Positions 37,193 to 63,172 of a stretch of DNA of 64,000 nt are shown in pieces (within the stretch, counting starts at the first letter, position 1; the number at the start of each line of letters is the position of its first letter). This stretch comes from a virus. Its lineage: Duplodnaviria > Caudoviricetes. The notes below the pieces were generated by a model, which ran no database searches, had not been told where the DNA came from, and saw only the letters and a list, made by a program, of their open reading frames with translations. The stretch spans positions 87,747-151,746 of IMG/VR virus record IMGVR_UViG_3300033073_001516; one strand, given 5' to 3'. A program made the translations under genes and the position numbers.

Positions 37193-37480
37193 CTATTTTT
37201 GAGATTCATCGCTAGCTAATAACGATCGATACGCGCGCTCGGCGCGATCTCTAGCCCAGAACGTCGCGTCATTTTCTGACTTAAAGCGTCTGCTCGGCGT
37301 ACTCAGATCATCTCTATCTTTCACCGTTACTCGCGCGAAATAACAGTTGTTGATGGGGTCGGCGGTGATAACGACATGAACTCCCGGGAAGTCACGCCAG
37401 TTCATGGTATCAGGTCTAGGAGATTTTAGATCCCTACCGATCTCTTCTCTGATAAGCTTTCTGAGCAATGAGATTGTCAT
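37193..37480 (-). CDS. Hypothetical protein with IREE-type leader
   Basis: MTISLLRKLIREEI. Confidence 0.7.
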   Translation of the reverse strand: MTISLLRKLIREEIGRDLKSPRPDTMNWRDFPGVHVVITADPINNCYFARVTVKDRDDLSTPSRRFKSENDATFWARDRAERAYRSLLASDESQK

Positions 37481-39640: not shown

Positions 39641-40237
39641 TTATTTCGGCTTAACGCCACTTTTTAGCACAATCTCGCAGATGTGCTCGAGTCGTTCGAT
39701 ATGCTCAAAGGCTGACCAAGGATCACCAGCGACGGCACATACGCCGTGATTTGCTTGCCCTACGATATCGTGCTGGAGTGAACCATCATCAGCCACCTCC
39801 AGGTGGGCTCCAGTTGCATCACCCAATTCACGTGATGTTGCCGGCAGGCAAGGTACATTAGGCCCAACACGGGTGTACCGGTTCACTTCTGGAAACTGCC
39901 TGGCGATCTCCTGAAGGTCCCAGCCGGCGAACATGGCGGAAACGATATGGGTCGCGTGAACGTGGACGACGGCGCGGGTCTTCGTGGCGTTTTTCTGGAT
40001 TAACCAATGCATGTGAAGCTCGCCGGAAGCGTTCTGTCCGCTAGGAACAACAACACCATCGTCCGTGAGCTTGCATTTCACGATGTGCTCTGGATGTATG
40101 ATCGTCTTTCGCCAACCCGATGGCGTGATGTAGAGAGTTTTTGAGTTAGTTCTACGAAGCGAAATGTTGCCATCTCGCGTGGTGATCCACCCACGCTCAT
40201 GACACTCACGCATGATATCACCGATCGCTGTCAGCAT
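39641..40237 (-). CDS. Class II aldolase/adducin family protein
   Basis: DGNIS, ITPSG, SGELHMH, VVHVH, NHGV. Confidence 0.9.
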   Translation of the reverse strand: MLTAIGDIMRECHERGWITTRDGNISLRRTNSKTLYITPSGWRKTIIHPEHIVKCKLTDDGVVVPSGQNASGELHMHWLIQKNATKTRAVVHVHATHIVSAMFAGWDLQEIARQFPEVNRYTRVGPNVPCLPATSRELGDATGAHLEVADDGSLQHDIVGQANHGVCAVAGDPWSAFEHIERLEHICEIVLKSGVKPK

Positions 40238-40928: not shown

Positions 40929-40980
40929 GACTTGATAAATGTAACGTATCGATTGCGCATTTTCACGATAAATATGAATT

Positions 40981-42015
40981 ATGCAGAGCAATCTTAGAAA
41001 GCTTATCCGTCTGATGATCGAATCGGACGCGACTTTACCTTCTCCCCAGAACCTGAATCCAATCGACCCGCAAGCTATCAGAAGATCAAAAATGGATAGT
41101 TTAGCTGCCGAGGTGGCGAGTAAGCTTGATCTAGCCGATGTTCGATATTTGTCAAAGTCAAAGCGTCTCTACGGGGCTTACACTTTCTCGGCAGTCGATC
41201 ATAGAAACGAGAACGTTATTCTCAAAATTCAACCCGAAAATGAGCTGGCCGGCTATGTCAGAGCTCAGCAAATAATATCGAGGCTTCCTGATCGAGTGGC
41301 TCGTCATTTGCCGATGATTTACAAAGTTAGAACGCTGGAAGAGATAGGCGTGAAACCTCCAACTGACGAATTCGGGACCTCTGAGAACCTCGGTGTCATC
41401 GTGATGGAGCGCCTGGAAGAGCTACCCGGTAACATGTTCGATCTAATCACTCAACCAGCGACAAAGTCTATGAGATCTTTAGAATCGTTAGTTCGTGATC
41501 GACAGGCTTTCAACGATATGATAGACGAGGCTATGAAGAAGTCAGAACGCTCGATCGACTCTGCCATCAAAAATTCAGCCCGAAAAGTTGATCATGATGA
41601 AGAAGTTGAGCGTTTGAGAAGAATGCTGAGATCTGCTTCATACAGCCCCGAGGTTACCGACGATAGCGGTGGCATGATGATATCAGCCATCGACGGACTG
41701 AGCTCTGTTATCTGGGAGAAAGTGAACCTCTGGTGCAGAAATCTTGGGATAACCAAGCCGGGATCTATTCAATCTCTGACGCAAATGCTAATGAGCTCAA
41801 TGTCTACTCTTCTTGGAAGACGGGCAGTACCAAAAGAACCGACCCGTGACGTCGCTGGTCCTCTGGGCCGTACGAAAGGAATAAGAGAGCTCGTCAAAGC
41901 ACTAGATGACCTAAAGTCTATGAACATCAAGCCGTCCGACGTTCATGGAAACAACATCATGATCCGTCCCGAGACAGGTGAGCTTGTCCTAGCGGATCTA
42001 GGTCATTTCACCTGA
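40981..42015 (+). CDS. Protein-kinase-fold protein with leader motif
   Basis: VILKI, IVMERL, SDVHGNNIM, LADLG; N-terminus MQSNLRKLIRLMIES. Confidence 0.8.
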   Translation: MQSNLRKLIRLMIESDATLPSPQNLNPIDPQAIRRSKMDSLAAEVASKLDLADVRYLSKSKRLYGAYTFSAVDHRNENVILKIQPENELAGYVRAQQIISRLPDRVARHLPMIYKVRTLEEIGVKPPTDEFGTSENLGVIVMERLEELPGNMFDLITQPATKSMRSLESLVRDRQAFNDMIDEAMKKSERSIDSAIKNSARKVDHDEEVERLRRMLRSASYSPEVTDDSGGMMISAIDGLSSVIWEKVNLWCRNLGITKPGSIQSLTQMLMSSMSTLLGRRAVPKEPTRDVAGPLGRTKGIRELVKALDDLKSMNIKPSDVHGNNIMIRPETGELVLADLGHFT

Positions 42016-42232
42016 TCATCTCATCCAATATCTCCTCGATCATCTCACGAAGCTTCATCTTCTTGAAGTATTTCGCGATTTTTGCTCGAACGTCGGGCTC
42101 AACGATCACTCCGGGCTGATCGAGCATGTCAGTCTCACGACCGTAAGTGGGATCATGAGGGGCTCGAGTCTTCGCTTTCGGTGCTCTCGTGCTGTGACCT
42201 GGCGTTGACCTGTCCTTTTCAGTTCTCCACAT
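42008..42232 (-). CDS. Hypothetical protein
   Basis: AGGAG/GAGG upstream; C-terminal KLREMIEEILDE. Confidence 0.55.
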   Translation of the reverse strand: MWRTEKDRSTPGHSTRAPKAKTRAPHDPTYGRETDMLDQPGVIVEPDVRAKIAKYFKKMKLREMIEEILDEMIR

Positions 42233-42497: not shown

Positions 42498-44384
42498 TTA
42501 CGTCTGGGTGTAATCGCTGCAGAACTTTCTTTCAATTGCTGGAAGGTCGGTCTCACCTCGACGAGGCAGCATCTCAGCTCTCTCCATCACGGCGTTTGCC
42601 GCAACGGTAGCCTCCAGGTCAGCATTGTCCCAGACTTCAGAGAACAGACGCTTCACCACTCCACGCCGTGACTTGAAAAAGTGCTCCATGACCGTCATAT
42701 TGCGCGAGAAATTTGGATCCTTGCGATCCTTCTCAGTCTGGAGGCGTGAGGCGACGAGTGCCATCACAGCTAGCTCTGCACCGATGTCCACCAGTCGAGC
42801 AAGGATGAGCTGTCTCATTTCAAGCTTCGGTCCACGAAGAAGCATCTGGTGGAAGAGGGTGAGAGCGAGTCGACGTGTGTATCCATCCACCCAGCTGAGA
42901 TGACGCGATAGATTATCATCGAACTTATCAAATTTGTCAAAAATTGAGCCCACGACATTCGAGATATACCATTTCGGATAGATGAGAGCGCACTTACCGA
43001 TCACCTTGATCTTGTCCCATAACGTCGCTCCCTTCTTGAAGAGACCTCCAGCATTTCGGAGGTGACCGTCGAGAGCCTCACGGGCGATGAAGAGGTGCAT
43101 GACGTCCGTCGTCCCCTCCACGATCCGGTTGATCCGCGTGTCTCGGAGGACTCGCTCCATCGGGAATCCGACCTCTCCGCGACCCTCCACAGACTTCTCG
43201 GTCTCGAATCCGCGTCCACCTCGGAGCTGGAATGCCGCGTCAGCGACCTCCCAGGAGCGTTCACTGTTCCACATCTTGGCAGTGGCAGCCTCCATTCGGA
43301 TGTCGACGTTGTGCCGGTCACTGAGTGCCGCACCGTAGAGGGCGAGGGTCTCCATGGCGTAGGTCTGGCCTGCGATCTCTGCGAGCTTCTGGGCACCGGC
43401 CTCGTGGTTACCTACCGCCTTTCCCCACTGGACGCGGCTCTTCGCCCAAGAGGCCGAGAAGTCAAGGACATCCTTCGAGACAAATGCCGCTACCGCTGGG
43501 ATTCCCAATCGACCGTCATTGAGAGTGGTGAGCGCGAGCTTCAAGCCCTTCCCCTCACCGAGGATGACATTCTCTGCCGGAACCTTCACATTGCGGAACC
43601 GGATGAGACCGTTCTCGATGGCTCGGATGCCGAGGAATCGACAGCGATGGACGACTTCGAGACCCTCGGATCGACCTTCCACCACGAATGCCGTGATACC
43701 CTTTCGACCATCGTCAGAGACCGTACGGGCCATGACCACGTAGAGGTCAGCCAGGGTGCCGTTGGTGCACCAGAGCTTCTCGCCGTTGATGATCCAGGAA
43801 CCGTCGGGCTGCTTCACTGCCTCGGTGACCATGCTGGCCGGGTCGGAACCTGCACCTGGTTCCGTAAGAGCGAACGCTGAAAGCTCACCCTTGGCGATAC
43901 GAGGAAGCCACTTCTTCTTCTGCTCCTCGGTGCCGAAGAGTTTCAGGGGCTGGGGTACACCGATGGACTGGTGGGCTGAGAGGGTCGCCGCGGTTGAACC
44001 GCAGTACTTTGCCACCGCACCGAGAATCCGGACGTAGTTTGTCTGCGAGAGGCCGAGGCCACCGTACTCCTTCGGGATCTTGATACCGAAGAGTCCAAGC
44101 TCAGCGATACCCTTCCAGACATGCGGCGGGATCTCCTGAGCCTTATCGATCGCATCACCATCGAGATTATCCTTCGCCCAAGCATCAAACCTTGCGATGA
44201 TCTCATCCCCCGCCTCGCGATCAGCCACGCTTTGTTCTGGGAACGGATAGGAAAGCTCGATGTCCAGGTCGCCCATGAACATCGAACCCATGAAAGACTT
44301 TGACTTCCAATCCAGCTCACGACTCTCCTCAGCGACCTGGATCGACTTTGCTTCTTCAGACGTACGATTCTTATTCTCGATCAT
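42498..44384 (-). CDS. Acyl-CoA dehydrogenase (VLCAD/ACAD9-like long form)
   Basis: IPKEYGGLGL, AHQSIG, FALTEPGAGSD, NGEKLWCTNG, RIVEGT. Confidence 0.95.
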   Translation of the reverse strand: MIENKNRTSEEAKSIQVAEESRELDWKSKSFMGSMFMGDLDIELSYPFPEQSVADREAGDEIIARFDAWAKDNLDGDAIDKAQEIPPHVWKGIAELGLFGIKIPKEYGGLGLSQTNYVRILGAVAKYCGSTAATLSAHQSIGVPQPLKLFGTEEQKKKWLPRIAKGELSAFALTEPGAGSDPASMVTEAVKQPDGSWIINGEKLWCTNGTLADLYVVMARTVSDDGRKGITAFVVEGRSEGLEVVHRCRFLGIRAIENGLIRFRNVKVPAENVILGEGKGLKLALTTLNDGRLGIPAVAAFVSKDVLDFSASWAKSRVQWGKAVGNHEAGAQKLAEIAGQTYAMETLALYGAALSDRHNVDIRMEAATAKMWNSERSWEVADAAFQLRGGRGFETEKSVEGRGEVGFPMERVLRDTRINRIVEGTTDVMHLFIAREALDGHLRNAGGLFKKGATLWDKIKVIGKCALIYPKWYISNVVGSIFDKFDKFDDNLSRHLSWVDGYTRRLALTLFHQMLLRGPKLEMRQLILARLVDIGAELAVMALVASRLQTEKDRKDPNFSRNMTVMEHFFKSRRGVVKRLFSEVWDNADLEATVAANAVMERAEMLPRRGETDLPAIERKFCSDYTQT

Positions 44385-44857: not shown

Positions 44858-45844
44858 CTAGAAAGCCTTCGGACTTCCTGCGGTAGAGCCGAGGAACGTG
44901 ACAATATCGCTCACATGCTCCGGGGTGAGATCCTTACCCAGCTGATGCTTTCCCATCATGGAAACAGCCTCACCAAGAGACGCAGCAGATGCATCGTGGA
45001 AGTAAGGGGCAGTCTCAGTCGAGTTACGAAGGGATGCTACCTTGAATACCATCCTGTCGGACTCCTGGTTCGTTACCCCAAATCGTCCCTGATCAGCCTG
45101 ATTTGGCCATGGATTGACTGTTCCAAGCTTCATGAACGAAGCCCCACCAAGGAGAGCACCATTGTGACATGCGGTGCAGCCGACCTCCATGAAAGTGTTG
45201 AGTCCGCGCTTCTCATCATCGCTGAGCGCCGAATCATCACCAGCGAGGAAAGAGTCCCACTTGGATGGAGTGACCAGAGTCCGCTCGTAGGCACCGATCG
45301 CGACGCCAATGTTCTGGAAATTAAGAGGGTCCTTCTCACCCGGGAATGCCTTAGCAAACTCTGCGATGTATGTCGGATCTTTCTTGAGAACTGCCACAAC
45401 GGCATCTGCATTCGGCATCGCCATCTCGCCAGCAGCTAGGATAGGACCGAGAGCCTGCTCTTCCACGGTAGCAGCCCGACCATCCCAGAACTGGGAGAAT
45501 TGACCAGCAGCGTTAAAGACCGTCGGAGAATTGCGACCGACCGGCTGCATCTTATGACCTGGAGAGAAAGAATGCTCATCAGCTCCATCCTTCGCTACGT
45601 TATGACAGGAGGAGCAAGAGAGATCACTGTCGGCGGAGAGCTGCGTCTCAAAAAAGAGACGTCGACCAAGAGCGACGCGCTCGGGAGTAGGCTCACTACC
45701 AGCGACAAAAAAGTTATCAGGGAGAGGCTGGAACGCTCCGAGCTTCGTTCGATCAACTGTCACTGCGTCGGCGATCTGCGGATTTACTGTCTCGACTGCA
45801 TCGTTGTTAGAGCATGCGAGGAGAAGCGAAAGAATCGTGATCAT
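44858..45844 (-). CDS. Di-haem cytochrome c peroxidase (CCP/MauG family), lipoprotein
   Basis: CSSCH and CTACH, RNSPTV, QFWDGRA, PYFHD; lipobox LLAC. Confidence 0.93.
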   Translation of the reverse strand: MITILSLLLACSNNDAVETVNPQIADAVTVDRTKLGAFQPLPDNFFVAGSEPTPERVALGRRLFFETQLSADSDLSCSSCHNVAKDGADEHSFSPGHKMQPVGRNSPTVFNAAGQFSQFWDGRAATVEEQALGPILAAGEMAMPNADAVVAVLKKDPTYIAEFAKAFPGEKDPLNFQNIGVAIGAYERTLVTPSKWDSFLAGDDSALSDDEKRGLNTFMEVGCTACHNGALLGGASFMKLGTVNPWPNQADQGRFGVTNQESDRMVFKVASLRNSTETAPYFHDASAASLGEAVSMMGKHQLGKDLTPEHVSDIVTFLGSTAGSPKAF

Positions 45845-47101: not shown

Positions 47102-49303
47102 TTATTTAAACTTCAGCAGCCTGACCAGAAGAGCTTCGTAGAGAGGTGTCTGTTCCACGCTTTTATCATCGATCGAATCGAGATAAGCTGACATCTCTGA
47201 CTGAAATTCTGAGACGGCAGCACTTAGCTTCATGATCTGCGATTTTGCAAACTCGTACTTGATTCTCTTGGATTCGCGTAACCGATCTGCGTTGGGCGCA
47301 TCCGATCTCCTAATTTCTCCAAGCTTATCATACAGCTCGGAGAGTCCATCCTCAGCAGCTTTAGAGATCGCTTTTTTGTATTTCCTGTTGATCAGTTCCG
47401 CTTGCTGGCGCTGCTCAGCTGGGATCGATGTATCCCACCCAGGAACAAATTCGCTTCGCGTGAACGCATCGAATTCAATCTTGAGATATCCATCATTTTC
47501 GTTGAATTTTTCCGGATTGTCGCCGATTATGTCCTTGTAAATGCTGATCTCTGACATCGCTTCGGACACGATGCTCTGCAGCCGATCGAGAAGATCTCCT
47601 ACACCACCGAGATTAGCTTTCAAACCGCTGGTCTCCGGACGGCGTAAGTTCTTCTTATCGATTACCTTCAATCGCTCAGCCTCATCTTGCTCCTGAGAGC
47701 GCCTCTTTTCGATCGAGTATCTCAGTCGCAGGATATCGATCAGCCGTTTCTCACCGTGCTCAGGGTCTGATATTGTGTAATCGGCGCCGAGCTCCTTTGT
47801 CACAGGCACGACGAGTTGGATGAAACGTTCAAGAGGCACCGAGTTACGAAGAGCCCCAGAATCCGAAAGCATCATCAAAAATTTTGCCGCCTCGATGTCC
47901 TGCGACTCGATGCTGCCCTTCACGCTTGCGAAGAATGTTTCACAGAGTTTTATCGCAAACTTTGCTGCGATCGGATCCGACCCTGTGACCCATAATCTCG
48001 TGAGGAATTCCTGCATCCAGCTGAACTTACCGCCTGATCTGCTGACGAGAGCATCGATGATGGAATTATTACCAGCGAGATCATAGACGATCGCAATTTT
48101 GATCGGAAGATAAGCGGTGATTCTATCGTAGTTGCTTACGAACCAGGAAACAATCGCGGAGATCTCATCACGTAACCCGAGCTTATCAAGCGTTCCCCTC
48201 AGCTTATTTCCGATCATCCTGTAGTCACGACCAGCAATTTCTATGAGTTCAAAAGCTGCGGCGTCTTTGTCCGGAGTTGTCTTGAACTTACGGATCTTGA
48301 TTCTGATGCCTTCGACAATATCGTTGATTTTACTTTCGACCGCTTTCTTGTCGTGAGCATGAGATTTCTTTGAACTCTTCATGGGATTATCGAACTGACG
48401 CATCTCATCTATGATCGAAGTGTCCATGATGGCGATCTGATGCGGTTCATTCTTATGGACGAGACCTTCACCCGCGTCATCAACGAGAGCTTTGATTCCG
48501 GCCGTGATGAGGAGTCTTCGCCAGACTGAGATGTTTGAGCTCTTTACTCGCGATCCTGCCTCCGTTGCATTGTCAAAGTCTGAAGCAACTTTTGTGTTTG
48601 AGAGAGCTCTTGAGAGCGTCCAGATGATCTGCAATCGTCCAAGGCTGGATATTGAGCTCGAATCCTTCGGTAGGGTGTCATTGACACCAAACACTTTGTG
48701 ATGGCGGCCAGCTTGGACCAGCATCGATCTGAAAGATCTCTCCGGATTAGAGCTCCCGTCGTTCTGCTTGAACCATCCAAGAAGCTTGTCGATTGCTGAC
48801 CTGTAGGTGGAGTCGTCCATGCCGGTCGAGGTCTGGAACACGCCTGACATGTCATTGAAGCTGAAGAAGTTGATGTATGGAGCATCCGCAACAAACGGTA
48901 GACGGTAATCTATCGACGCGTATGGGTGCAGTTCGTCCGCTATCTCAGGCATCTCGAGAGCCGTTTCCATGTAACGCCCTCGTGTGAGATGCATGATCAT
49001 TTCTGGTGTGACAGGATACGCGTATAAGGCAAGAGGAGTATCGAACGGTGACGCTGGATTGATCCCAACCTTCTGGATCGAAGTCATGGTAAATCCATAC
49101 CTCACACGTCCGCGCGCGCCCTTTCGGGCGAGCTCAAGTCCGAACTGAGCGATCTGCTTTTCGGTGTCCTGTCGTCCCGATTTCTTGACGGGAACTCGTG
49201 GATCGTCAGCTGCGCTCAGCGCAGCTCGAGTGTCCGCGCGCCGCGCGCGGGACGACTCAAAGATCTCTTGAAGAACGATCTTCCTGATAAGCTTTCGATT
49301 CAT
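47102..49303 (-). CDS. Large hypothetical protein with leader motif
   Basis: Start moved to MNRKLIRKIVLQEIFES behind ATAATTA; N-terminal half has KVGINP.S.FDTPLALYAYP and DDAGEGLVHKNEPHQ motifs. Confidence 0.75.
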   Translation of the reverse strand: MNRKLIRKIVLQEIFESSRARRADTRAALSAADDPRVPVKKSGRQDTEKQIAQFGLELARKGARGRVRYGFTMTSIQKVGINPASPFDTPLALYAYPVTPEMIMHLTRGRYMETALEMPEIADELHPYASIDYRLPFVADAPYINFFSFNDMSGVFQTSTGMDDSTYRSAIDKLLGWFKQNDGSSNPERSFRSMLVQAGRHHKVFGVNDTLPKDSSSISSLGRLQIIWTLSRALSNTKVASDFDNATEAGSRVKSSNISVWRRLLITAGIKALVDDAGEGLVHKNEPHQIAIMDTSIIDEMRQFDNPMKSSKKSHAHDKKAVESKINDIVEGIRIKIRKFKTTPDKDAAAFELIEIAGRDYRMIGNKLRGTLDKLGLRDEISAIVSWFVSNYDRITAYLPIKIAIVYDLAGNNSIIDALVSRSGGKFSWMQEFLTRLWVTGSDPIAAKFAIKLCETFFASVKGSIESQDIEAAKFLMMLSDSGALRNSVPLERFIQLVVPVTKELGADYTISDPEHGEKRLIDILRLRYSIEKRRSQEQDEAERLKVIDKKNLRRPETSGLKANLGGVGDLLDRLQSIVSEAMSEISIYKDIIGDNPEKFNENDGYLKIEFDAFTRSEFVPGWDTSIPAEQRQQAELINRKYKKAISKAAEDGLSELYDKLGEIRRSDAPNADRLRESKRIKYEFAKSQIMKLSAAVSEFQSEMSAYLDSIDDKSVEQTPLYEALLVRLLKFK

Positions 49304-49350: not shown

Positions 49351-49365
49351 CTCTATTCTGTTACC

Positions 49366-52351: not shown

Positions 52352-52488
52352 ATTTACAGCTGCCGTTTCCGCCAGCCACATTCATATATTACCACTCCCT
52401 TGTCACATTTGCATACTTACTGCAAAATTTCTAGCCGCGGCTCGTCGTGGGCTCACGACACGAATACTTAGAATGAAAGAGGTGCTTT

Positions 52489-52863
52489 ATGCCAGTCAAC
52501 GTCAAGAGAATAATCCGTGAGGAACTCGCACGCATTCTAGAGGGTGACGTCGTCCACGTCAAGTTTGGTGGCGCGCAGAAGACAAAGGAACGCGAGCAGT
52601 CAAATTACCAGAGAGCTCTCGGAAAGGTCGTTGCTACTCTCGAAGAGATCATCAACAGTGAAGGAGCTGACATGGAGGACGACCAGATCGTTGAGCTCAC
52701 GAAGCTTCTCGATCACGTGACCGGTATGCAGGACGATGCTGCTGGTGAACCAGATGAGGAGGACGAGATGCCCTTCGGTCGTGGAGCTTCGGGCCGTGAG
52801 CGTGATGAGCTTGCAAGATTCAAGAAGTATATGAGCGACCGCGATAGCGACCGCGACTACTAG
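52489..52863 (+). CDS. Acidic hypothetical protein with leader motif
   Basis: MPVNVKRIIREELARILEG; ATACTTA and GAGG upstream. Confidence 0.8.
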   Translation: MPVNVKRIIREELARILEGDVVHVKFGGAQKTKEREQSNYQRALGKVVATLEEIINSEGADMEDDQIVELTKLLDHVTGMQDDAAGEPDEEDEMPFGRGASGRERDELARFKKYMSDRDSDRDY

Positions 52864-52876
52864 TCGGATTACGATT

Positions 52877-53584
52877 ATGCCGTCCGCGAAAGATTTCACG
52901 CGAGCATTCGAACGTGCGACAGAAAGATCATCGAGATACGATGAATTTAGAAGCATGCTTCAATCGCTCGAGGGCAGCCTGAATGCAGACTCAAAGTCAG
53001 CTTCAATTAAACTCAACACCGACAAAAAGGGATCGGACAGTAGAGTCGTTGAAGATGCTGTCCGTGAGAAATTCGGTGATGATTTAAAAAGAAGCAGATA
53101 CCCTGACGCTCTTTTCGGAAATTTGCCCGTAGAGGTGAAGCACACCACCTCGGGATTCGGAAAGCTACCCACCGATTCATACGGATTGACAAATACCGAT
53201 CAAAAATGGTATCTTTTCGTCAAAGGATCGGTTGATAGGGTCAAAGATGAGATCTTCACCGCTTGGATGATGAGATCTGATGAGCTGTATCGGGAGATGA
53301 TATCGCTGCTTCGCGGAACAAATCAAGAGTCTCTATTCCCTCATAAGGATCTCAGCGCGATCGACCCGCAGTCTGACACAGCACTGAAAGATATAGAGCA
53401 GGAGATACACGACATCGCTAGTTCGTTGTCGTTGTCGATCCTCAGAAAAGCGAAAGGTCAATCCGAAAAGGACGTACCCGAGACGATGAGCCTCAGCAAG
53501 AGAGTGGGAATCAACAGGGTGAGATTCGATGTTAAGTTCGAATCTAAGCTTCGTAAGATAATCGCCGATATAATCAACGATTAG
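52877..53584 (+). CDS. PD-(D/E)XK restriction-endonuclease-like protein
   Basis: YPDALFGNLPVEVKHT; C-terminal FESKLRKIIADIIND. Confidence 0.55.
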   Translation: MPSAKDFTRAFERATERSSRYDEFRSMLQSLEGSLNADSKSASIKLNTDKKGSDSRVVEDAVREKFGDDLKRSRYPDALFGNLPVEVKHTTSGFGKLPTDSYGLTNTDQKWYLFVKGSVDRVKDEIFTAWMMRSDELYREMISLLRGTNQESLFPHKDLSAIDPQSDTALKDIEQEIHDIASSLSLSILRKAKGQSEKDVPETMSLSKRVGINRVRFDVKFESKLRKIIADIIND

Positions 53585-55235
53585 TCTTGGAGGTGTCATC
53601 CTCTACGTTCTCTTCACCTTGCTCATCTTCTGCAACAGCAAAATTTGGATTTCCCATAGCTGCGAGTCGTTGTACGATCTTTTTGTACAGCTCACTGCTC
53701 TCTGGAATGTTTGAAAGGGGCGCTGCGACGGGAATGCCAGACCTTCTACGACCCGTGTAGTTCTTCTCGTGAGTGTGCTCACGTGCTTCCTGGCTTCTTA
53801 TGACTAGAAGCGGAGCTCCGTAAATCGCTATGGGGGGATTCGGCATGTTCGATATGCGATCAAAAGCCCGTCGCATCTCACGTAGTGTGATGCCCGATTC
53901 CATGTTATCATCTGCTATGATGGCAATATGCAGGAATTCTGGAAGCGTGCTCTCATCAGCCCGCACGAAGTCAGATATGTGCTTTCGTTGCATTGAGGGC
54001 ACCACACTGATCGAAAAATGCGGCTTGTTTCCGATTTTCTGCTGCCACTTTGGAACATCGGAAGACGTTTTTTCTTCAAAATCTTTGATAAGATCGCTGA
54101 CGGTCACAAGTTGTGGGACACCGCGATTGCGGTTCCAAGATTTCCATCTTTTCTCTATGTAAGGACTGAGTCCCGACAGATCATCTTGAGTAATCGTCGA
54201 AAGATCAAGCTCGAGCTCACCCAAGGGATTGAGATTAGCTCCGAGCAAGTTCAGCTGATCGGTGAACTGCTTAATGAGGCTTCGATCAGCTTTTATTCTC
54301 GGAGATTGAGACGCCGGAATTTTGCCAAAAGAGCGATTAACGTCAACGTCAGTGGATGTTAAGCGACCGGCGCTCACTGAGCTCAAGCTTGGAATCTTGA
54401 ACTCGTTGATCTTTGAGATGCACTCGTTCACTCTCTTGCGAACTTTCTTATACGCATTAATTACGTAATCTGGAAACACACCGGGCTTCGCTTCGTTGGC
54501 CTCTATCCTCTTTTTCGCGACCTCTCGGGCCGCCATGATCGCATCTTTATAATTTCTAACGTTGAATAGAGGGTAGAAATCACCGACCGCCCTCGGGTCT
54601 CTGAAAAGCGAATCGAAAATGTTTTTTATTTCGATGGCGCATTCTTCATAAGCTTGCGCTGAAAATCTTTCTTTGACAGATCTAGCGCGATCTTTAAGCC
54701 TAGACTTGATATAGGTCGCGACGTTCTGCCGAAGGCTTTCCGCGTAATCGGCTGCGTGTTGAGAGGACGAGGGCGTCACGTAGATCGAGATTCTCGCATC
54801 TTTTGCTTCGACCGGAAGTTCTCCATCCCTTATCTTTCTGTCTATATCATCGATAATCGACTTCGCGATAATCTGTGATCCATCAGAGATGTATGCCTGC
54901 ATGTCTTGCTCGGGAACCGTGTAGACAGTGTCAGTCTTACCCTTCAGGGCTTCGAGAACGTCTTCAAGGTGAGACGGGTATCTCTCGTCATCACGTCCGG
55001 GAGCATTATTGCTAAATGAAAAAGCCGAGCGGATTGGAAACCCGCCCGGAAAATCCTGACTGAATTTTTCGTCCGATGTGTACGCGCTGCTGCCCTTTTT
55101 TACGAAGTGAACATCATTGAGATCCCAGGAGAGAGGAATCTGATCACCAGGCTTGACACCTGATAGGTCTCCAATCTTAAATCCTTCATTGACAAGGCAA
55201 GATCTGACAATATTTCTGAGAGCTCTTTCGGTCAT
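53574..55235 (-). CDS. Phosphoribosyltransferase-fold protein with leader motif
   Basis: IAIIADDNMESGITL PRPP-loop-like motif; N-terminus MTERALRNIVRSCLVNEG. Confidence 0.55.
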   Translation of the reverse strand: MTERALRNIVRSCLVNEGFKIGDLSGVKPGDQIPLSWDLNDVHFVKKGSSAYTSDEKFSQDFPGGFPIRSAFSFSNNAPGRDDERYPSHLEDVLEALKGKTDTVYTVPEQDMQAYISDGSQIIAKSIIDDIDRKIRDGELPVEAKDARISIYVTPSSSQHAADYAESLRQNVATYIKSRLKDRARSVKERFSAQAYEECAIEIKNIFDSLFRDPRAVGDFYPLFNVRNYKDAIMAAREVAKKRIEANEAKPGVFPDYVINAYKKVRKRVNECISKINEFKIPSLSSVSAGRLTSTDVDVNRSFGKIPASQSPRIKADRSLIKQFTDQLNLLGANLNPLGELELDLSTITQDDLSGLSPYIEKRWKSWNRNRGVPQLVTVSDLIKDFEEKTSSDVPKWQQKIGNKPHFSISVVPSMQRKHISDFVRADESTLPEFLHIAIIADDNMESGITLREMRRAFDRISNMPNPPIAIYGAPLLVIRSQEAREHTHEKNYTGRRRSGIPVAAPLSNIPESSELYKKIVQRLAAMGNPNFAVAEDEQGEENVEDDTSKTNR

Positions 55236-55259
55236 CGCGTAACTAATTATTCGATTCTC

Positions 55260-56983: not shown

Positions 56984-57220
56984 CTAGCCCAGGTTCACCC
57001 TTATATCAGTGATCCTGCTGCGAGATTTTTCTGTTGGAGTCCCAGCTGCGTCGGTCTCTAGAACTGCGAGTGCCCACATCTTACCGTGATTCGGGCGAAT
57101 CTTCATGATATCCGACCTGATTCTCATCAGGAGCTCCTCATCTTCATGAGGGACGGAACCTGGGATCGTCGAGTAATAGGTCGTATTGGTGATCGTGAAG
57201 AGGCAATATACTGGATTCAT
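56984..57220 (-). CDS. Hypothetical protein
   Basis: Overlapping start/stop with the upstream gene. Confidence 0.45.
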   Translation of the reverse strand: MNPVYCLFTITNTTYYSTIPGSVPHEDEELLMRIRSDIMKIRPNHGKMWALAVLETDAAGTPTEKSRSRITDIRVNLG

Positions 57221-57972
57221 TCGACAATATTAGTCACATGTCGGCGGAATTTTATCGATTCCGAGATTTCAATGAAGTTTTCTTCCTCTTCCTCTTCCTG
57301 CATGCTCGGAACGTGGGAGATGTATGTTCCCTGGGCAGAGAGCTCATAATTTGACGCGGGAGACCCTTGAAAATGATCCTTGACATCGCTCTCACGCACG
57401 ATGGTGATCCTTCTCTCGGCCAGTCCGGTGCTCTTTGCGATCTTTCCAAGCTGCTTCCAGACCTGACCGGGTTTCTTGTCCACGTCCAGATTCGGGTTGT
57501 CGATCTTCGCCTTTTCCTCTGCAGCACGATCGAGACCGCTCATGTCAGGAACGCTCTGGACGGTTCGCAGGTTCGGATTATCCTTGACCATCCTATTGAG
57601 CTCATCCCCCGACGCAGGATCTTTCGCAGCGATGTTAAGCATCGTTGCAGCAGCTTTCGCGCGCTCTTTCGGATCCTTAGCTCCCTTCGTGCTCGGATCG
57701 GTCCCGAACCCCTTGAGATAGGCTTTCTTGTCGTCCGACGAGAGCTTCGATATCTCTTTCTTCGCAGTGAAGATGCTTCCACTTGTCTTTGATGCGGCGT
57801 CTTTTACATGCTTGTTCGCGATCTCGATGCTCTTCGCCCTGACAGCGCTTTTCACGTCGGCTGGCATGCTGACGGGATTACCGGCGCCCGCCTCACCACC
57901 CAGGACGCCCTCATCTGTTCTTGAGAGCTCCTCACGTATGATCTGTCTAAGCATGGATTCGTCAAGCAACAT
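57217..57972 (-). CDS. Leader-motif protein
   Basis: MLLDESMLRQIIREELSRTDEG. Confidence 0.8.
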   Translation of the reverse strand: MLLDESMLRQIIREELSRTDEGVLGGEAGAGNPVSMPADVKSAVRAKSIEIANKHVKDAASKTSGSIFTAKKEISKLSSDDKKAYLKGFGTDPSTKGAKDPKERAKAAATMLNIAAKDPASGDELNRMVKDNPNLRTVQSVPDMSGLDRAAEEKAKIDNPNLDVDKKPGQVWKQLGKIAKSTGLAERRITIVRESDVKDHFQGSPASNYELSAQGTYISHVPSMQEEEEEENFIEISESIKFRRHVTNIVE

Positions 57973-58017
57973 TTAGAGTTCCGTTGTGTTAACGGTAAAT
58001 ATACTCGACTAATCAGC

Positions 58018-58614
58018 TCAAATGGCGAAGTAAGCGCCGCGAGTATGCGCGACTCTGTCAAGGTATTCCTCGCTGATCCCTGTCAACGAGAATCTCATAT
58101 CTAGGGCATCAAAAAGCGTAGATCGCCTCATCATGACTGGGCTGGAGAACTTACCGATCACAATTTTCGTTCTGTCTCGCTCAGTCTCCGCATAGACCCT
58201 GACGGAAACATTGACTTTTTCAGCCAATCTAGGATCGAAATTATCGATTGGACCATCTTCGGCAAACTTGGAAATGCTCACCTGCATTTCTCCGTTTCGA
58301 TATCCGAAGTCATGAAGGCTCATTCCTTCATACCCGACGTCCTTCACTGGAAATGGAACATACCACGTATTATTCGCGCGTGTCCCCTCACGAAGCACGT
58401 TCTTCCAGATCCACTCAGCTGTGCCTGGACGATCTGGATTCATAATGACGCTGGCAACGTCGGGTTGACCGCCAACGCGGAGGAGCTCCACGACCATTCG
58501 ACCATTGAGATCCCTTAACTCAATCTTGGATCTGAGAGGCGGTTCCGACACTTCGCGGAGACGTCGAAGCTCTGAGCGAATAATTGAACGCAGCGTGCTC
58601 TCGTTGATTCTCAT
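58018..58614 (-). CDS. Leader-motif protein
   Basis: MRINESTLRSIIRSELRRLRE. Confidence 0.8.
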   Translation of the reverse strand: MRINESTLRSIIRSELRRLREVSEPPLRSKIELRDLNGRMVVELLRVGGQPDVASVIMNPDRPGTAEWIWKNVLREGTRANNTWYVPFPVKDVGYEGMSLHDFGYRNGEMQVSISKFAEDGPIDNFDPRLAEKVNVSVRVYAETERDRTKIVIGKFSSPVMMRRSTLFDALDMRFSLTGISEEYLDRVAHTRGAYFAI

Positions 58615-58623
58615 AAAAGCTCC

Positions 58624-59478
58624 CTAGTTGACAGCGGTTGCGACGAGCTTGCCCCTGATGTTGCTACGAACTTCATCTGCGATGCGTTTGATATAAGGCT
58701 TCAGGGCCTGCAGAGCCTCAACGTACTTCGGAGCTGCGCCAGCTGGATTTACCTGGAATCCACCCTTCGTCAGGAGTTCCTGGCACACGATCTCGGCTAG
58801 AGCATCGGATGTTGTAGCGATCGCGCCGTCCCTCGCTGATGCCATCGTGAGAGCGCCCACCCATTTGCTCTCATTCTCACCCGTGATAGCCTCGATTTCA
58901 GGATCAACTTCACCATATTGAAGGAACATGTCCGAAAGCTCCCGATACAGCGGGCTGATACGATCCACGGAGTCGCCGCTGTCGAACATCGAATGAAAGA
59001 TCATCCACGGTGTTGCCATGAAGCCCTTGTCGGTCGACATCGAGGAGTAGAGGACAACAACGTCATCACCACCAACTCGGGCGGGAGATTCGTATCCGAG
59101 ACGTTCGAGAGTCTCGATGCCATCGGGCACAAGAGGCGTGAGTCGAACTCGATTCTGGGTGTAGCCTGATGGATCGTCGTCAACGCCTGCTGCTCGTCCT
59201 ACACCGATGAGGGGTGCGATCCAGACATTACCCGGAATGTTCGCGAGGTGCTTCTCAGCGAGAGCTTTGAAACGTCCTGAACGGGCGTACTTCTCCGCGC
59301 CCTTACGATTCGCTCCTCCGCCCTCTCCCGCGCCGAAGCTCGTATGCGTCATGTCATCGTCATCATCCTCGTAACCATCACGCCCGATCCCCAGGCTTCC
59401 AGCATACGGCATCTCCTGAAGGGCCCGTCGCGCCTCCTCACGGATGATCTTCCTAAACCTGCTCTCTGTGATTCTCAC
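58624..59478 (-). CDS. Leader-motif protein
   Basis: MRITESRFRKIIREEARRALQE. Confidence 0.8.
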   Translation of the reverse strand: MRITESRFRKIIREEARRALQEMPYAGSLGIGRDGYEDDDDDMTHTSFGAGEGGGANRKGAEKYARSGRFKALAEKHLANIPGNVWIAPLIGVGRAAGVDDDPSGYTQNRVRLTPLVPDGIETLERLGYESPARVGGDDVVVLYSSMSTDKGFMATPWMIFHSMFDSGDSVDRISPLYRELSDMFLQYGEVDPEIEAITGENESKWVGALTMASARDGAIATTSDALAEIVCQELLTKGGFQVNPAGAAPKYVEALQALKPYIKRIADEVRSNIRGKLVATAVN

Positions 59479-59551
59479 GAAACTCTCTCCAACGAGCTAT
59501 AAATATAATGCCACGGGAGAAATACAGGAAGACTTCCAAGCCACGGTACTT

Positions 59552-60190
59552 TCAAGCCGCTGCGGTGGCAAGATCCTTCTTGAATTTCTCGTAGGTGGTC
59601 TTTATCTGGGCCTGGTTCTGGGCTGTGGCGACCTGGGGAGCCACCTCAGCGATCTTCGCGATGATCTCACCCGTCTCTATGTCGCCGAGAGCTTTCGCGA
59701 GAGCTTTTACGGCCGGTCCCGCGTTCCTAGCGAGACCGTCCCTGTAGGCGCGCCCGACGATACCCAAGGCATCTCCCACGACGGGAAACATCGCCAAGGT
59801 TCCAAAGATGACGCCCATCCAATCCGCAGCAGCTGCAGCCTTGACGATCTGAACCTGAGCGACGCCAATGCTGAGGGCTATCCCGATCCCGGGAATACCG
59901 TCCAGCGCAGCCCCGAGCGCGGTAAATGCCCAATCGATGGGCTTGCTGTTCCACCCAGCTGAAAGAGCTTGGGAAACCGTAGGTGTAATGTCCACTTGCC
60001 CCTTCGCGATCTGGGCCGCGCCCATCGTCTCAGCGCCACCGAGGGTTCGCGCAGCTACATACTTCAGCTTGCCCATCGTGTCGACGGAAGCGTCCTTCAT
60101 AGTTGGCTCGGAGAAGACGTCGAGGGGGCTGGCCTCCCTGATGAGCTCCTCACGGACGATTTGGCGAAGTTTATTTTCAGTGATGAGCAT
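59552..60190 (-). CDS. Leader-motif protein with hydrophobic helical hairpins (pre-toxin-TG-like)
   Basis: MLITENKLRQIVREELIRE; LDGIPGIG and LAMFPVVGDAL. Confidence 0.8.
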   Translation of the reverse strand: MLITENKLRQIVREELIREASPLDVFSEPTMKDASVDTMGKLKYVAARTLGGAETMGAAQIAKGQVDITPTVSQALSAGWNSKPIDWAFTALGAALDGIPGIGIALSIGVAQVQIVKAAAAADWMGVIFGTLAMFPVVGDALGIVGRAYRDGLARNAGPAVKALAKALGDIETGEIIAKIAEVAPQVATAQNQAQIKTTYEKFKKDLATAAA

Positions 60191-60223
60191 TCTAAGAATA
60201 TCCCTTATCTTTTTATGCCAATC

Positions 60224-61030
60224 TTATCGTCTGCGAAGACCGAGCATCTGACGAACATCATCGTCGGACATCTTCTGCGGCTTTCTCTCCGGAGGCGGAG
60301 CAGCGACTCCACCGACCCTTCTGATCGTCCGAGCGGGTGAAGCGGGAATTGTCTCAGGTTCTGGACGTCGAGCAGGAGCGATTTGCTCCTCGCGCTCTGC
60401 TCTCCGAGCATCACGCTCTGCTCTCCGTTCATCTTTCTCAGCCTGCTCATCACGTCCCTTGTAGTAGTACTTCAGGGCGGCGCTCGCGGCCGCGACGGGA
60501 TCAAACATCCGCGCGCCGCCGAGCTTGATGAGGAAAGCTAGGCCGACGTCGCGAAGCCACTCGGTACGATTCGAGCCCGCTTGCTGCCACCTGATGTCTA
60601 CAAGCGGAATGGTAGAGTTTCTGACAGCTCCAGGTACCCCGAGAGCAACGGGATCCTTGTGGTGGATCGACATGATAACGCCGGGCATGGTGTACAGGTT
60701 GTTGATCTTGTCGAGAGTCGGAATGATAACGTGATCACCATCGTTAAAGATGATGTCGTTCTTGCCGAACAGCGTCTTGATCTCCCCAGTTTTTGTCTCG
60801 TGATCTTTCTTCCAAGATCTCGTCATCTGACCGTCATTGTACCAGCTGTCGAACGCAGGTGATCCTCCGACGAACGGGTTTCGATCTGCAGAGATGCTTC
60901 GCTTGCTATGAGACCAGACAACGTCATCCGTCGATCTCACATTATAACCGTGCCTGTCTCTTACAACCTCGGAGAGCGTCTCGAGCTCCTCCCGGACGAT
61001 ACTACGCAGCGCTCTCTCACTGATTCTCAT
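60224..61030 (-). CDS. Leader-motif protein
   Basis: MRISERALRSIVREELETLSE. Confidence 0.8.
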   Translation of the reverse strand: MRISERALRSIVREELETLSEVVRDRHGYNVRSTDDVVWSHSKRSISADRNPFVGGSPAFDSWYNDGQMTRSWKKDHETKTGEIKTLFGKNDIIFNDGDHVIIPTLDKINNLYTMPGVIMSIHHKDPVALGVPGAVRNSTIPLVDIRWQQAGSNRTEWLRDVGLAFLIKLGGARMFDPVAAASAALKYYYKGRDEQAEKDERRAERDARRAEREEQIAPARRPEPETIPASPARTIRRVGGVAAPPPERKPQKMSDDDVRQMLGLRRR

Positions 61031-61181
61031 GAAACTCGCTCCAACGGATCATAAATATAACGCTTGCTTGAAACGTGGGGGAGCTTCCGGCCCGGGGCAC
61101 TTTTGGGCGCAGTCACCCGCAGGGGGCAATTGGCAACCGAAAATCCCAACGGGGAAAATTTCAAACGCATGTCTCTCACGC

Positions 61182-61212
61182 AAAAAAATCGAGGGTGGAA
61201 ACCCACCCCCGA
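61182..61212 (-). terminator. Intrinsic terminator (family of three: also 62225-62254 and 62827-62854)
   Basis: TCGGGGG..CCCYCGA hairpin plus U-run after each cassette. Confidence 0.75.
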
Positions 61213-61230
61213 CCCTCGACCATCGATCGA

Positions 61231-61773
61231 TCAGCGTTCGGTGAGGAACGTCTGAACCTGGTGCGCAGCGATCTCGCCGACGCTCGCCATGTCGCCGCTC
61301 TCTGTGTCCTCGAACTTATCGTGCATGAAGGGCTCGAGAGCCTTCACACCGCGGGTGAACATGTCCCAGGCACGCTCGAGATCGGGTGAACCCTCGAACT
61401 CGTAGCCGCTGTTGCTCACCAGCCAACGACCATCGTCGTGGCTCTCGCGGATCGTACGCTTGCCAGCGCGTCGACGGGACTCCTCGAGGCCGAGCTTGCG
61501 GGCGACATCCATCGGGATATCATCGATGTACTGCGATGTGCCCTCGGGGCTGACGAAGTAAACCTTGACAACATCGCCCACGTTGCGGAAACGGACCACA
61601 GAGTCGAGGTGGGACTGGGGGCGACGACCGCCGATGCGGTCGGCGAGGCGCTCCTCACCTGCCTTGTTAAGGTCGGCCGTGAGGCGAAGAAGCGTCATGC
61701 GTGTGCTCTCACTAACAACGTTCTTGGTCTCTTCCCTGATGATCTGACGGATCCTGCTCTCTGTGATACGCAT
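61231..61773 (-). CDS. Leader-motif protein, two-module chimera
   Basis: MRITESRIRQIIREETKNVVSE; C-terminal module shared with 62873-63172. Confidence 0.85.
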   Translation of the reverse strand: MRITESRIRQIIREETKNVVSESTRMTLLRLTADLNKAGEERLADRIGGRRPQSHLDSVVRFRNVGDVVKVYFVSPEGTSQYIDDIPMDVARKLGLEESRRRAGKRTIRESHDDGRWLVSNSGYEFEGSPDLERAWDMFTRGVKALEPFMHDKFEDTESGDMASVGEIAAHQVQTFLTER

Positions 61774-61789
61774 CTTAAAATGAACTCCT
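61738..61789. repeat. 52-bp exact direct repeat (copy 2 at 62736-62787) spanning RBS and leader codons
   Basis: gatgatctgacggatcctgctctctgtgatacgcatcttaaaatgaactcct occurs twice. Confidence 0.9.
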
Positions 61790-61840
61790 GTGTGAATCTA
61801 ACTATAGCGATTAGGGTGAAAATTCACCCGAAGATGAGGT

Positions 61841-62170
61841 TTATTCGTCACGATCGGCGTCGCGACGCTCACGTTCCCAGCGGAGGAAATCGCCCCTCAT
61901 GAAGCGGTCCAGCTGCGCGGTCGCCTCGTCCCTCGCCTCGTCGGGTCCGAAATCACCCGAGCTGATCGCGGTGTCGACGAGCGCGTCCCAGAGCCTGTCG
62001 GCGGCCGGACCCTCAGGATCGGCGATCGTCGCGTCGAGGAGATCGTCCGGGATGTCAGCGAGGACCCAGCGATCGTCCCCACGGGGCTCAGCCCGGGCGA
62101 CGCTCTCGCGGAGGACCCGACGGGCCTCCTCCCTGATGATCCGACGTAACCTGCTCTCTGTCAATGCCAT
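61841..62170 (-). CDS. Leader-motif protein
   Basis: MALTESRLRRIIREEARRVLRE. Confidence 0.8.
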   Translation of the reverse strand: MALTESRLRRIIREEARRVLRESVARAEPRGDDRWVLADIPDDLLDATIADPEGPAADRLWDALVDTAISSGDFGPDEARDEATAQLDRFMRGDFLRWERERRDADRDE

Positions 62171-62270
62171 GGTAAATCTCTCCTGCATACGTGTCTAAAT
62201 ATACGCGAAGCAGCGCTCGGGTGCAAAAAATCGGGGGCGGAAGCCCACCCCCGAAGCTAGAATCCGTGGA

Positions 62271-62771
62271 TCAATTCATCGCATTAAAGCGCGTCGCGAT
62301 CGCATCTGCGATCGCCCCAGCAATTTCAGCGTATCCCTTGTTCTGGGATTGAAGGCGCGTAATGATACCTTCAAATTGCTTTTGGTTGTGCATCTCATTA
62401 AGAACAGCGATAAGCTTCTCGGGATTCGAGATAGCAATTCTCATCTTGTACGTCATCGCCGGCACGCTCCCGAGGCCAGAGCTAACAGCCTTTATAACCA
62501 CATCGCGGACGCCCGGTATACTTGCTGTCAGGCGAAAAGCGGGATTGTACTTCAATATGAAATCGGCGATAGTGGTGGAAATCTGCGTAATTTCCTGCGG
62601 GCTCATGTTTCCTGTGGCAACCTTAGTCGCCGCGTTAGCTAGCGCGGCAGGAGCCTGCTGGACTGCCCGGTCGATCGCAGCGCCTGCAGCTTGAGCGTTG
62701 GGTTGCTCGGACAGAACGCGACGAGCCTCCTCACGGATGATCTGACGGATCCTGCTCTCTGTGATACGCAT
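62271..62771 (-). CDS. Leader-motif protein
   Basis: MRITESRIRQIIREEARRVLSE. Confidence 0.85.
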   Translation of the reverse strand: MRITESRIRQIIREEARRVLSEQPNAQAAGAAIDRAVQQAPAALANAATKVATGNMSPQEITQISTTIADFILKYNPAFRLTASIPGVRDVVIKAVSSGLGSVPAMTYKMRIAISNPEKLIAVLNEMHNQKQFEGIITRLQSQNKGYAEIAGAIADAIATRFNAMN

Positions 62772-62872
62772 CTTAAAATGAACTCCTACACTAGTCTAAT
62801 TATGTTGGTCCAACTGAAGTTGACCCAAAAATCGGGGGGCTTCCGCCCCCCCGACGCTCGGTCTCGGGACGA

Positions 62873-63172
62873 TCAGCGCTCGGTGAGGAAGGTCTGCGCC
62901 TGGTGAACTGCGATCTCACCGACGCTCGCCATGTCACCCGACTCGGTGTCCTCGAACTTGACGTCCGCGAATCTCTTGAGGTTGCCCACGGCGGTCGTGA
63001 ACTCGTACCACGCGTTCTCCACGTCGCTCGGTGCGTCCTCGAGCTCGTAGCCGACATCGCTCACGAGCCAGCGGCCGTGCTCGCCCATCTCACGGAGCGT
63101 GCGCTTGCCAGCGAGGGCACGAGCTGCCTCCTCGCGGATGATCTGCCGGATTCTCTTCTCATTCATTGTCAT
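62873..63172 (-). CDS. Leader-motif protein
   Basis: MTMNEKRIRQIIREEAARALAGKRTLRE. Confidence 0.8.
   Translation of the reverse strand: MTMNEKRIRQIIREEAARALAGKRTLREMGEHGRWLVSDVGYELEDAPSDVENAWYEFTTAVGNLKRFADVKFEDTESGDMASVGEIAVHQAQTFLTER

Follow-up and report, generated by a model that had tools for sequence, protein, structure and literature searches.

Does this locus encode a protein kinase that is carried in a phage head and enters the host together with the genome? We explored this question in a window of 64,000 nucleotides (nt), which is the final 64 kb of a 151,746-bp viral contig in IMG/VR (IMGVR_UViG_3300033073_001516). Positions given below are those of the window unless a genome position or another contig is named. 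The gene concerned is an open reading frame (ORF) of 344 amino acids (aa) at 40981..42015 on the plus strand, which an initial annotation described as a leader-tagged protein kinase delivered by the virion. Our analysis supported the kinase call for this ORF. Virion delivery of the kinase is plausible by analogy with the internal proteins and the Alt enzyme of phage T4.

The Kinase Gene and Its Relatives

The ORF cannot start before its ATG, because a stop codon sits one codon upstream. All the motifs quoted in the initial annotation were found behind MQSNLRKLIRLMIE-S, namely LKI (containing K82), VMERL (141-145), DVHGNNIM (320-327) and DLG (339-341). Plus-strand genes such as this one are indeed few, making up about 19 of the 148 crude gene calls in the contig, and its orientation opposite to its neighbours is kept in relatives together with synteny.

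We found 60 metagenomic homologues with identities of 33-92%, none of which was annotated. In an alignment of 31 homologues, the residues K82, E88, M142, E143, D320, H322, N325 and D339-L-G341 were invariant, as were W251, R281, P287, G293 and G300 in a helical insert that is described below. A profile search of 1.84 billion representatives recovered 351 relatives at E <= 1e-3, each representing a cluster at 50% identity. The atlas clusters nearest to the family were all viral, and the neighbours of the kinase in the viral library and the atlas were phage proteins, a minority of which carried a kinase annotation. The family itself has no annotation and occurs only in viral and metagenomic sequence.

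Conservation was then considered across 60 diverse members of the family, with identities down to 18%. D320, N325, D339 and G341 were invariant in all of them, K82 and H322 were conserved in at least 90%, and the consensus shows an LGxGxxxxVY glycine loop. This pattern is as expected from purifying selection on catalysis. Among the same 60 members, 20 matched Pfam Pkinase at E <= 0.01 (best 4e-12), four matched PK_Tyr_Ser-Thr and one matched APH (E 0.002). Because of these Pkinase matches and the conservation of catalytic residues in such remote relatives, the protein is read as a divergent Hanks-type kinase module that is probably active.

The window protein alone remained below threshold in Pfam, PHROG and NCBIfam scans, and its partial matches were confined to about residues 299-343, where the PHROG kinase matches had E-values of 0.007 and 0.4. 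When PDB sequences were searched with a profile, the only matches were a marginal one over the catalytic loop, to 7wj6 (E 0.044), and one to Cas10 that was spurious.

Predicted Fold and Half-Kinase Architecture

An AlphaFold2 model built on the 31-homologue alignment was confident, with a predicted local distance difference test score (pLDDT) of 85.8 and a predicted template modelling score (pTM) of 0.75. It shows a bilobal kinase fold. When the model was compared with the PDB by Foldseek, only protein-kinase-like folds were returned (ERK3, YtaA, APH, YihE and others), as the initial annotation would have it; E-values were about 1e-4, and global template modelling (TM) scores were low at 0.2-0.29. 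The top matches were mostly eukaryotic protein kinases (ePKs), with APH structures present at similar Z. RIO1, Bud32 and TkArkI were also among the top matches, and YtaA/CotS, YihE, RIO and Rv3197 were found as further ones. The kinase structures aligned over about 140-160 residues, and their target ranges ended at the DFG region.

In the model, a leader helix (2-15) and a disordered linker are followed by a helix (30-48), the N-lobe (52-143) and alphaD; then come helices spanning 164-297, alphaE (301-313), the catalytic loop, two short strands, DLG, H-F-T and the stop. The N-terminal helix, N-lobe and hinge (residues 30-150) are encoded at 41068..41430 on the plus strand. They include an analogue of the glycine loop (S60-A66), the beta3 (VAIK) lysine K82 within VILKIQ (41224-41226), alphaC (86-99) and the hinge VMERLE (141-146). 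An all-helical insertion of about 150 residues (151-300), defined by model secondary structure and by its invariant residues, lies between alphaD and alphaE and is encoded at 41431..41880 on the same strand. The remainder, 41881..42015 (+), encodes alphaE, the catalytic loop D320-V-H-G-N-N325, the beta strands, D339-L-G, H-F-T and the stop. D320 and N325 are the Asp and Asn of the HRDxxxxN motif and D339 is the DFG Asp (codons of D320 and D339 at 41938-41940 and 41995-41997, plus strand). The stretch from alphaE to DFG is ePK-like, with the pattern ..I.P.D.H..NIM.RP.TGE.V..D.G.

The chain thus terminates three residues past DLG, and the activation segment, the APE motif and helices alphaF-alphaI are absent. 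Most of the distant relatives terminate 3-8 residues past D-x-G, and in multi-module relatives the next module begins at that same point. Because relatives and multi-module chains share this boundary, the early stop is neither a truncation nor a gene-calling artefact. The helical insert probably substitutes for the missing alphaF-alphaI scaffold.

Some relatives are long chains (P0086, P0189, P0187, P0082, P0105 and P0166) that hold two or three tandem kinases, a kinase and a NUDIX domain, or a kinase and a cytidylyltransferase. Their kinase units end just past DxG, and in many cases the next element is a leader-like helix with [LI]-x-E at its end. In sequence, such a chain looks like a protease-punctuated polyprotein.

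The Leader Tag

Residues 1-14 of the kinase (MQSNLRKLIRLMIE; 40981..41022, plus strand) form an amphipathic helix that ends in M-I-E. They are followed by a variable, disordered linker (residues 15-29; 41023..41067, plus strand) with indels among orthologues. A hidden Markov model (HMM) was built from N-termini and searched against the six-frame translation of the 151-kb contig. It detected the leader at the N-termini of 15 ORFs with E-values from 2.8e-11 to 4.4e-4, and the tag noticed in the initial annotation is therefore real. All 15 significant matches were at ORF starts, and the next-best match had an E-value of 0.21. The kinase leader is a weaker member of the set (E 1.3e-5).

Fourteen of the 15 leader ORFs are inside the window. 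Nine of them, with unrelated bodies, form a tandem array on the minus strand at 57217..63172, with starts at 63172, 62771, 62170, 61773, 61030, 60190, 59478, 58614 and 57972. The same HMM also marked proteins of 553 aa (53574..55235, minus), 124 aa (52489..52863, plus), 733 aa (47102..49303, minus) and 95 aa (37193..37480, minus). No Pfam or PHROG family matched the bodies of the leader-tagged proteins, and a literature search for the leader motifs returned noise only.

Five different codons, drawn from both codon families, encode the invariant Arg positions of the leader, and identical-residue pairs across leaders are encoded by different codons in half of the cases. Because codons differ at identical residues, the leader is conserved as a peptide and not as DNA. 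Within the kinase family, the entropy of the leader core (1.35 bits) is close to that of the N-lobe (1.27 bits), and that of the linker is 2.55 bits. In the model, the leader helix stands apart from the body and its pLDDT is low; residues 16-24 have pLDDT <50.

Distant kinases carry leaders of other flavours, and adjacent unrelated genes in their contigs share the flavour. An ENWR-type kinase is accompanied by three further ENWR-type genes in one locus (L017) and by two in another (L015), and the partners at LRxIIRE-type loci are exclusively LRxIIRE-type, including an RNase_T-like protein. Because the flavour co-varies with the phage, the tag belongs to the phage and not to the kinase. Another tagged enzyme comes from a related phage: an RNase_T-like protein of 504 aa (L007:9940-11454, minus strand) that starts with the leader MRITESRLREFIRE.

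An [LIVM]-x-E motif occurs in all 15 leaders and in 50 of 135 other ORFs. The kinase leader holds a single such site, M-I-E14|S15, and position 14 is Glu in 29 of 30 sequences, within a near-invariant L-x-E. We regard M-I-E14|S15 as a candidate cleavage site of the gp21 type (L/I-x-E).

Head Module and Prohead Protease

In phage T4, N-terminal propeptides of 10-19 residues, the capsid-targeting sequences (CTS), direct internal proteins into the prohead core and are removed by gp21; Alt is a packaged enzyme that is ejected into the host (PMC9026906). The contig encodes a head module of the same type outside the window, consisting of the large terminase, portal, prohead protease, five small ORFs and major capsid protein (MCP). 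The MCP belongs to the Gp23 family, and its closest cultured relative is that of Microcystis phage Mel-JY01 (35%). The protease (genome 49972..49352) belongs to the S77/gp21 family (PF03420 match at 90 bits). It shares 34% identity with T4-type gp21, and both motif blocks, His and Ser, align, including the residues that match H85 and S140 of wV7 gp21, which we take to be the catalytic pair.

The fifteenth leader ORF (genome position 48840, minus strand; E 1.2e-6) sits between the protease and the capsid gene, the position of the T4 core proteins. The leader HMM was applied to the small ORFs of this interval (L012:7344-9352, genome 47344-49352, minus strand); adjacent ORFs show weak leader-like helices, N-terminal at 49352 (E 0.21) and C-terminal at 47940 (E 0.5), both also on the minus strand. 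Kinase and protease are also found together on a sister contig.

Two features of a T4-type CTS are thus present: a short N-terminal peptide common to otherwise unrelated proteins of one phage, and an L/I-x-E site at its end in a phage that encodes a gp21-family protease. Circumstantial support for the virion-delivered kinase proposed in the initial annotation comes from the gp21-type protease, the gp23 capsid, the leader ORF in the head module, the near-invariant E14 and the co-variation of tag and phage; the steps beyond these we infer by analogy.

The Partner ORF

A conserved ORF of 74 aa at 42008..42232 on the minus strand is convergent with the kinase gene and overlaps its stop by 8 nt. 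It has a good ribosome-binding site, AGGAGAGG, and ends in a leader-like acidic helix (KLREMIEEILDEM). Its core is 86% identical in amino acids to the orthologue in contig L005, whereas the kinase of that contig is only 46% identical. The nucleotide differences of the core fall 7/3/15 by codon position, mostly at the third. No Pfam match was obtained for the partner, and no further copies of its domain were found within the contig.

In one clade (P0045/46/47/53), the partner is fused in frame to the N-terminus of the kinase, and the fusion is found in L007/L008. These features suggest that the two proteins are functionally linked or were once modules of one chain; the small protein is probably a functional partner of the kinase or what was formerly its upstream module. 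A model of the fusion gave no confident docking of the small domain or its helix on the kinase body, with pLDDT <55 and a shallow alignment there. We also considered whether the P0045 fusion arose by a simple inversion between two leader-coding stretches, and this was rejected, since the fused gene still runs opposite to its neighbours and stands in a different gene order.

The Upstream Box

The initial annotation pointed to an ATAAATA just upstream of the kinase. It is present at 40968..40974 (+), 6 nt before the ATG and without a Shine-Dalgarno sequence. Its reading as a promoter has to be revised, and the recurrent box of the contig is ATANTTA. A T4-style late promoter was rejected, because the 151 kb contain only five copies of ATAAATA and a single TATAAATA. 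ATANTTA emerged instead from an unbiased scan of k-mers; the contig has 45 copies, of which 25 lie no more than 60 nt ahead of a start on the same strand. Orthologues of the kinase hold the canonical ATATTTA or ATAGTTA 5 nt before the ATG; the ATAAATA of the window is thus a one-mismatch copy of ATANTTA.

ATANTTA precedes the two tail-sheath genes, the tape-measure-like, scaffold-position, head-core and tail-fibre-like genes, and eight leader genes; boxes stand upstream of six of the nine array genes. Examples in the window are at 62797-62803, 61799-61805 and 55244-55250 on the minus strand and at 52464-52470 on the plus strand. The tail-sheath paralogues, both of them large (1000 and 1032 aa), are arranged in tandem on the minus strand (L011:11012-17143, genome 31012-37143), each with its own box. 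In about ten genes, the box is just 0-9 nt from the start codon without a Shine-Dalgarno sequence. The sequences of these genes suggest leaderless mRNAs, or a box that is not, or not only, a promoter. The kinase mRNA may itself be leaderless, because its gene has no Shine-Dalgarno sequence.

Proposed Mechanism and Alternative Explanations

We infer virion delivery as the most likely single mechanism. The tag would act like a T4 capsid-targeting sequence and dock the kinase into the prohead core, and the gp21-type protease of the phage would cut it after E14. The mature kinase would then remain in the head, enter the host along with the DNA, and phosphorylate host or phage proteins ahead of phage gene expression, as Alt does by ADP-ribosylation. 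Drawn by analogy, this whole chain from tagged kinase to injected enzyme has, in our judgement, a little short of an even chance of being right.

Several observations weigh against it. The window protein alone is under the Pfam Pkinase (PF00069) cut-off, with 12.8 bits against 31.7, and a tblastn search with three family members found no cultured relative carrying the kinase among 50,697 phage records. The D-x-H-x-x-N catalytic loop lacks the Lys of Ser/Thr kinases and has His in its place, and with C-lobe elements missing, the protein-kinase activity could be altered or absent. The [LIVM]-x-E enrichment is partly circular, since I-R-E is within the leader motif. Since leader-like helices are found at the partner C-terminus and at inter-module junctions as well, the tag is not an N-terminal signal in the strict sense. 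We tried to place the MCP cleavage site by alignment with T4-type gp23, but the N-termini aligned ambiguously, and LRE61|S is just the last [LIV]-x-E ahead of the conserved block. Moreover, ATANTTA also precedes the genes for a DnaB-like helicase and an SNase (a nuclease), so the box does not establish late expression of the kinase.

Some of these observations are just what would be expected if an active kinase worked inside the infected cell without being packaged, its shared helix being a docking or oligomerisation element or a junction of polyprotein ancestry. This explanation, which we consider possible though rather unlikely, would account for the leader-like helices at the partner C-terminus and between modules of long relatives, for the fusion of partner and kinase in one clade, and for an upstream box shared with non-structural genes. 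One example of such docking would be a pairing between the kinase helix, which is basic in sequence, and the acidic helix at the end of the partner. However, 15 proteins that are otherwise unrelated carry the tag, including one from the head-core module, and the near-invariant Glu fits the specificity of the encoded protease family; both speak against this explanation, and the fusion model placed nothing onto the kinase body, although the alignment is shallow there.

The activity itself can also be questioned. A phosphotransferase acting on small molecules or other non-protein substrates, of the APH, choline-kinase or UbiB-like kind, would share the D-V-H-G-N-N loop (as in APH, RIO and UbiB-type proteins, without the Ser/Thr-kinase Lys) and could do without an activation segment and a peptide-binding lobe, both of which are absent here; APH, YtaA/CotS, YihE, RIO and Rv3197 were among the structural matches, and some long relatives have weak ABC1 matches. 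We nevertheless consider it improbable, given that Pkinase and PK_Tyr_Ser-Thr matches far outnumber the single APH match among the diverse relatives, that the alphaE-to-DFG stretch is ePK-like and that the top structural matches are mostly ePKs. The truncated architecture and the degenerate glycine-rich loop of the window protein (SKSKRLYGAY) would even fit a pseudokinase or a purely structural head or core component without catalysis, but the conservation of K82, D320, N325 and D339 across the family makes this very improbable.

Virion delivery may extend further. The half-kinase family with its 351 representatives could be capsid cargo as a whole, loaded by address helices that are specific to each phage, freed by the prohead protease and co-injected with DNA, with the partner as an adaptor or as an inhibitor that silences the kinase until maturation. 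We put this forward tentatively, as a doubtful generalisation from the T4 analogy. If virion delivery is true, the family would provide the first case of bacteriophage protein kinases delivered by the virion, and a pre-made kinase arriving with the genome could, like T4 Alt with its ADP-ribosylation, act before phage transcription is sensed by a defence system. The half-kinase architecture, with its stop after DFG and its insert before alphaE, tests ideas on the minimal catalytic core of kinases. The tag and its matching protease would be a testable, and possibly engineerable, cargo-loading system in giant T4-related phages.

Genomic Setting

The CheckV completeness of the contig is about 45%, and at a length of 151,746 bp its source is therefore probably a jumbo phage. 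Its sole DNA-level match is a 484-kb uncultured phage. The window holds 19 tRNA genes, all on the minus strand, and encodes a PrkA/SpoVR/DUF444 cassette, PhoH and a phage helicase. In the surroundings of the kinase gene are genes for a class II aldolase, an SNase, an acyl-CoA dehydrogenase, a di-haem cytochrome c peroxidase, a tail lysozyme and a trypsin-like peptidase. The full-length acyl-CoA dehydrogenase, the peroxidase and the aldolase are unusual auxiliary metabolic genes to lie among phage tRNA genes (42498-44384, 44858-45844 and 39641-40237, all on the minus strand). GC content climbs across the window, from 36-39% at 12-18 kb, where a glycan-gene island lies, to 54-62% at 56-64 kb, where the leader-tagged array lies.

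Comparison with Known Systems

Unlike Hanks-type Ser/Thr kinases (PF00069; PknB, PKR and ULK4), the window kinase lacks the activation segment, APE and alphaF-alphaI, has an insertion of about 150 helical residues between alphaD and alphaE, and holds His in place of the catalytic-loop Lys. It resembles the minimal atypical kinases RIO1, Bud32 and TkArkI in its reduced C-lobe and in having no canonical activation loop. OspG/NleH and HopBF1 are further kinases of that kind. RIO1, Bud32 and TkArkI retain helices past DFG, whereas the window kinase stops there and its helical mass precedes alphaE; no sequence relationship to the minimal atypical kinases was detected. Compared with APH and choline-kinase-type enzymes (PF01636), nothing follows DLG in the window kinase, so there is no C-terminal helical substrate subdomain there.

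Phage kinases are emerging as broad tools of host takeover and anti-defence, of which T7K (gp0.7) is an example; T7K has a DPV motif in place of DFG (PMC13645617). The initial annotation compared the window kinase with gp0.7, and the comparison holds as a functional analogy, both being phage-encoded enzymes of protein-kinase fold with a likely role in host takeover or anti-defence. T7-like kinases were among the weak BFVD structural matches of the window protein, which had no significant sequence match to the T7K family models in PHROG. The comparison does not extend to motif or timing: T7K is an early product that is not packaged and carries DPV and a C-terminal shut-off/DNA-binding domain, whereas the window kinase has a leader and DLG and ends there.

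The closest parallel for the tag is with IPI-III and Alt of T4. The tag sequences differ, being of the LRxIIRE/LRKLIRLMIE type in the window phage, which is uncultured and has at least 15 tagged genes, and the cargo is a kinase rather than the ADP-ribosyltransferase of T4 Alt. As in T4, however, a short propeptide-like tag stands at the N-terminus of unrelated proteins and ends in L/I-x-E, in a phage with a gp21-family protease and a gp23-family capsid.
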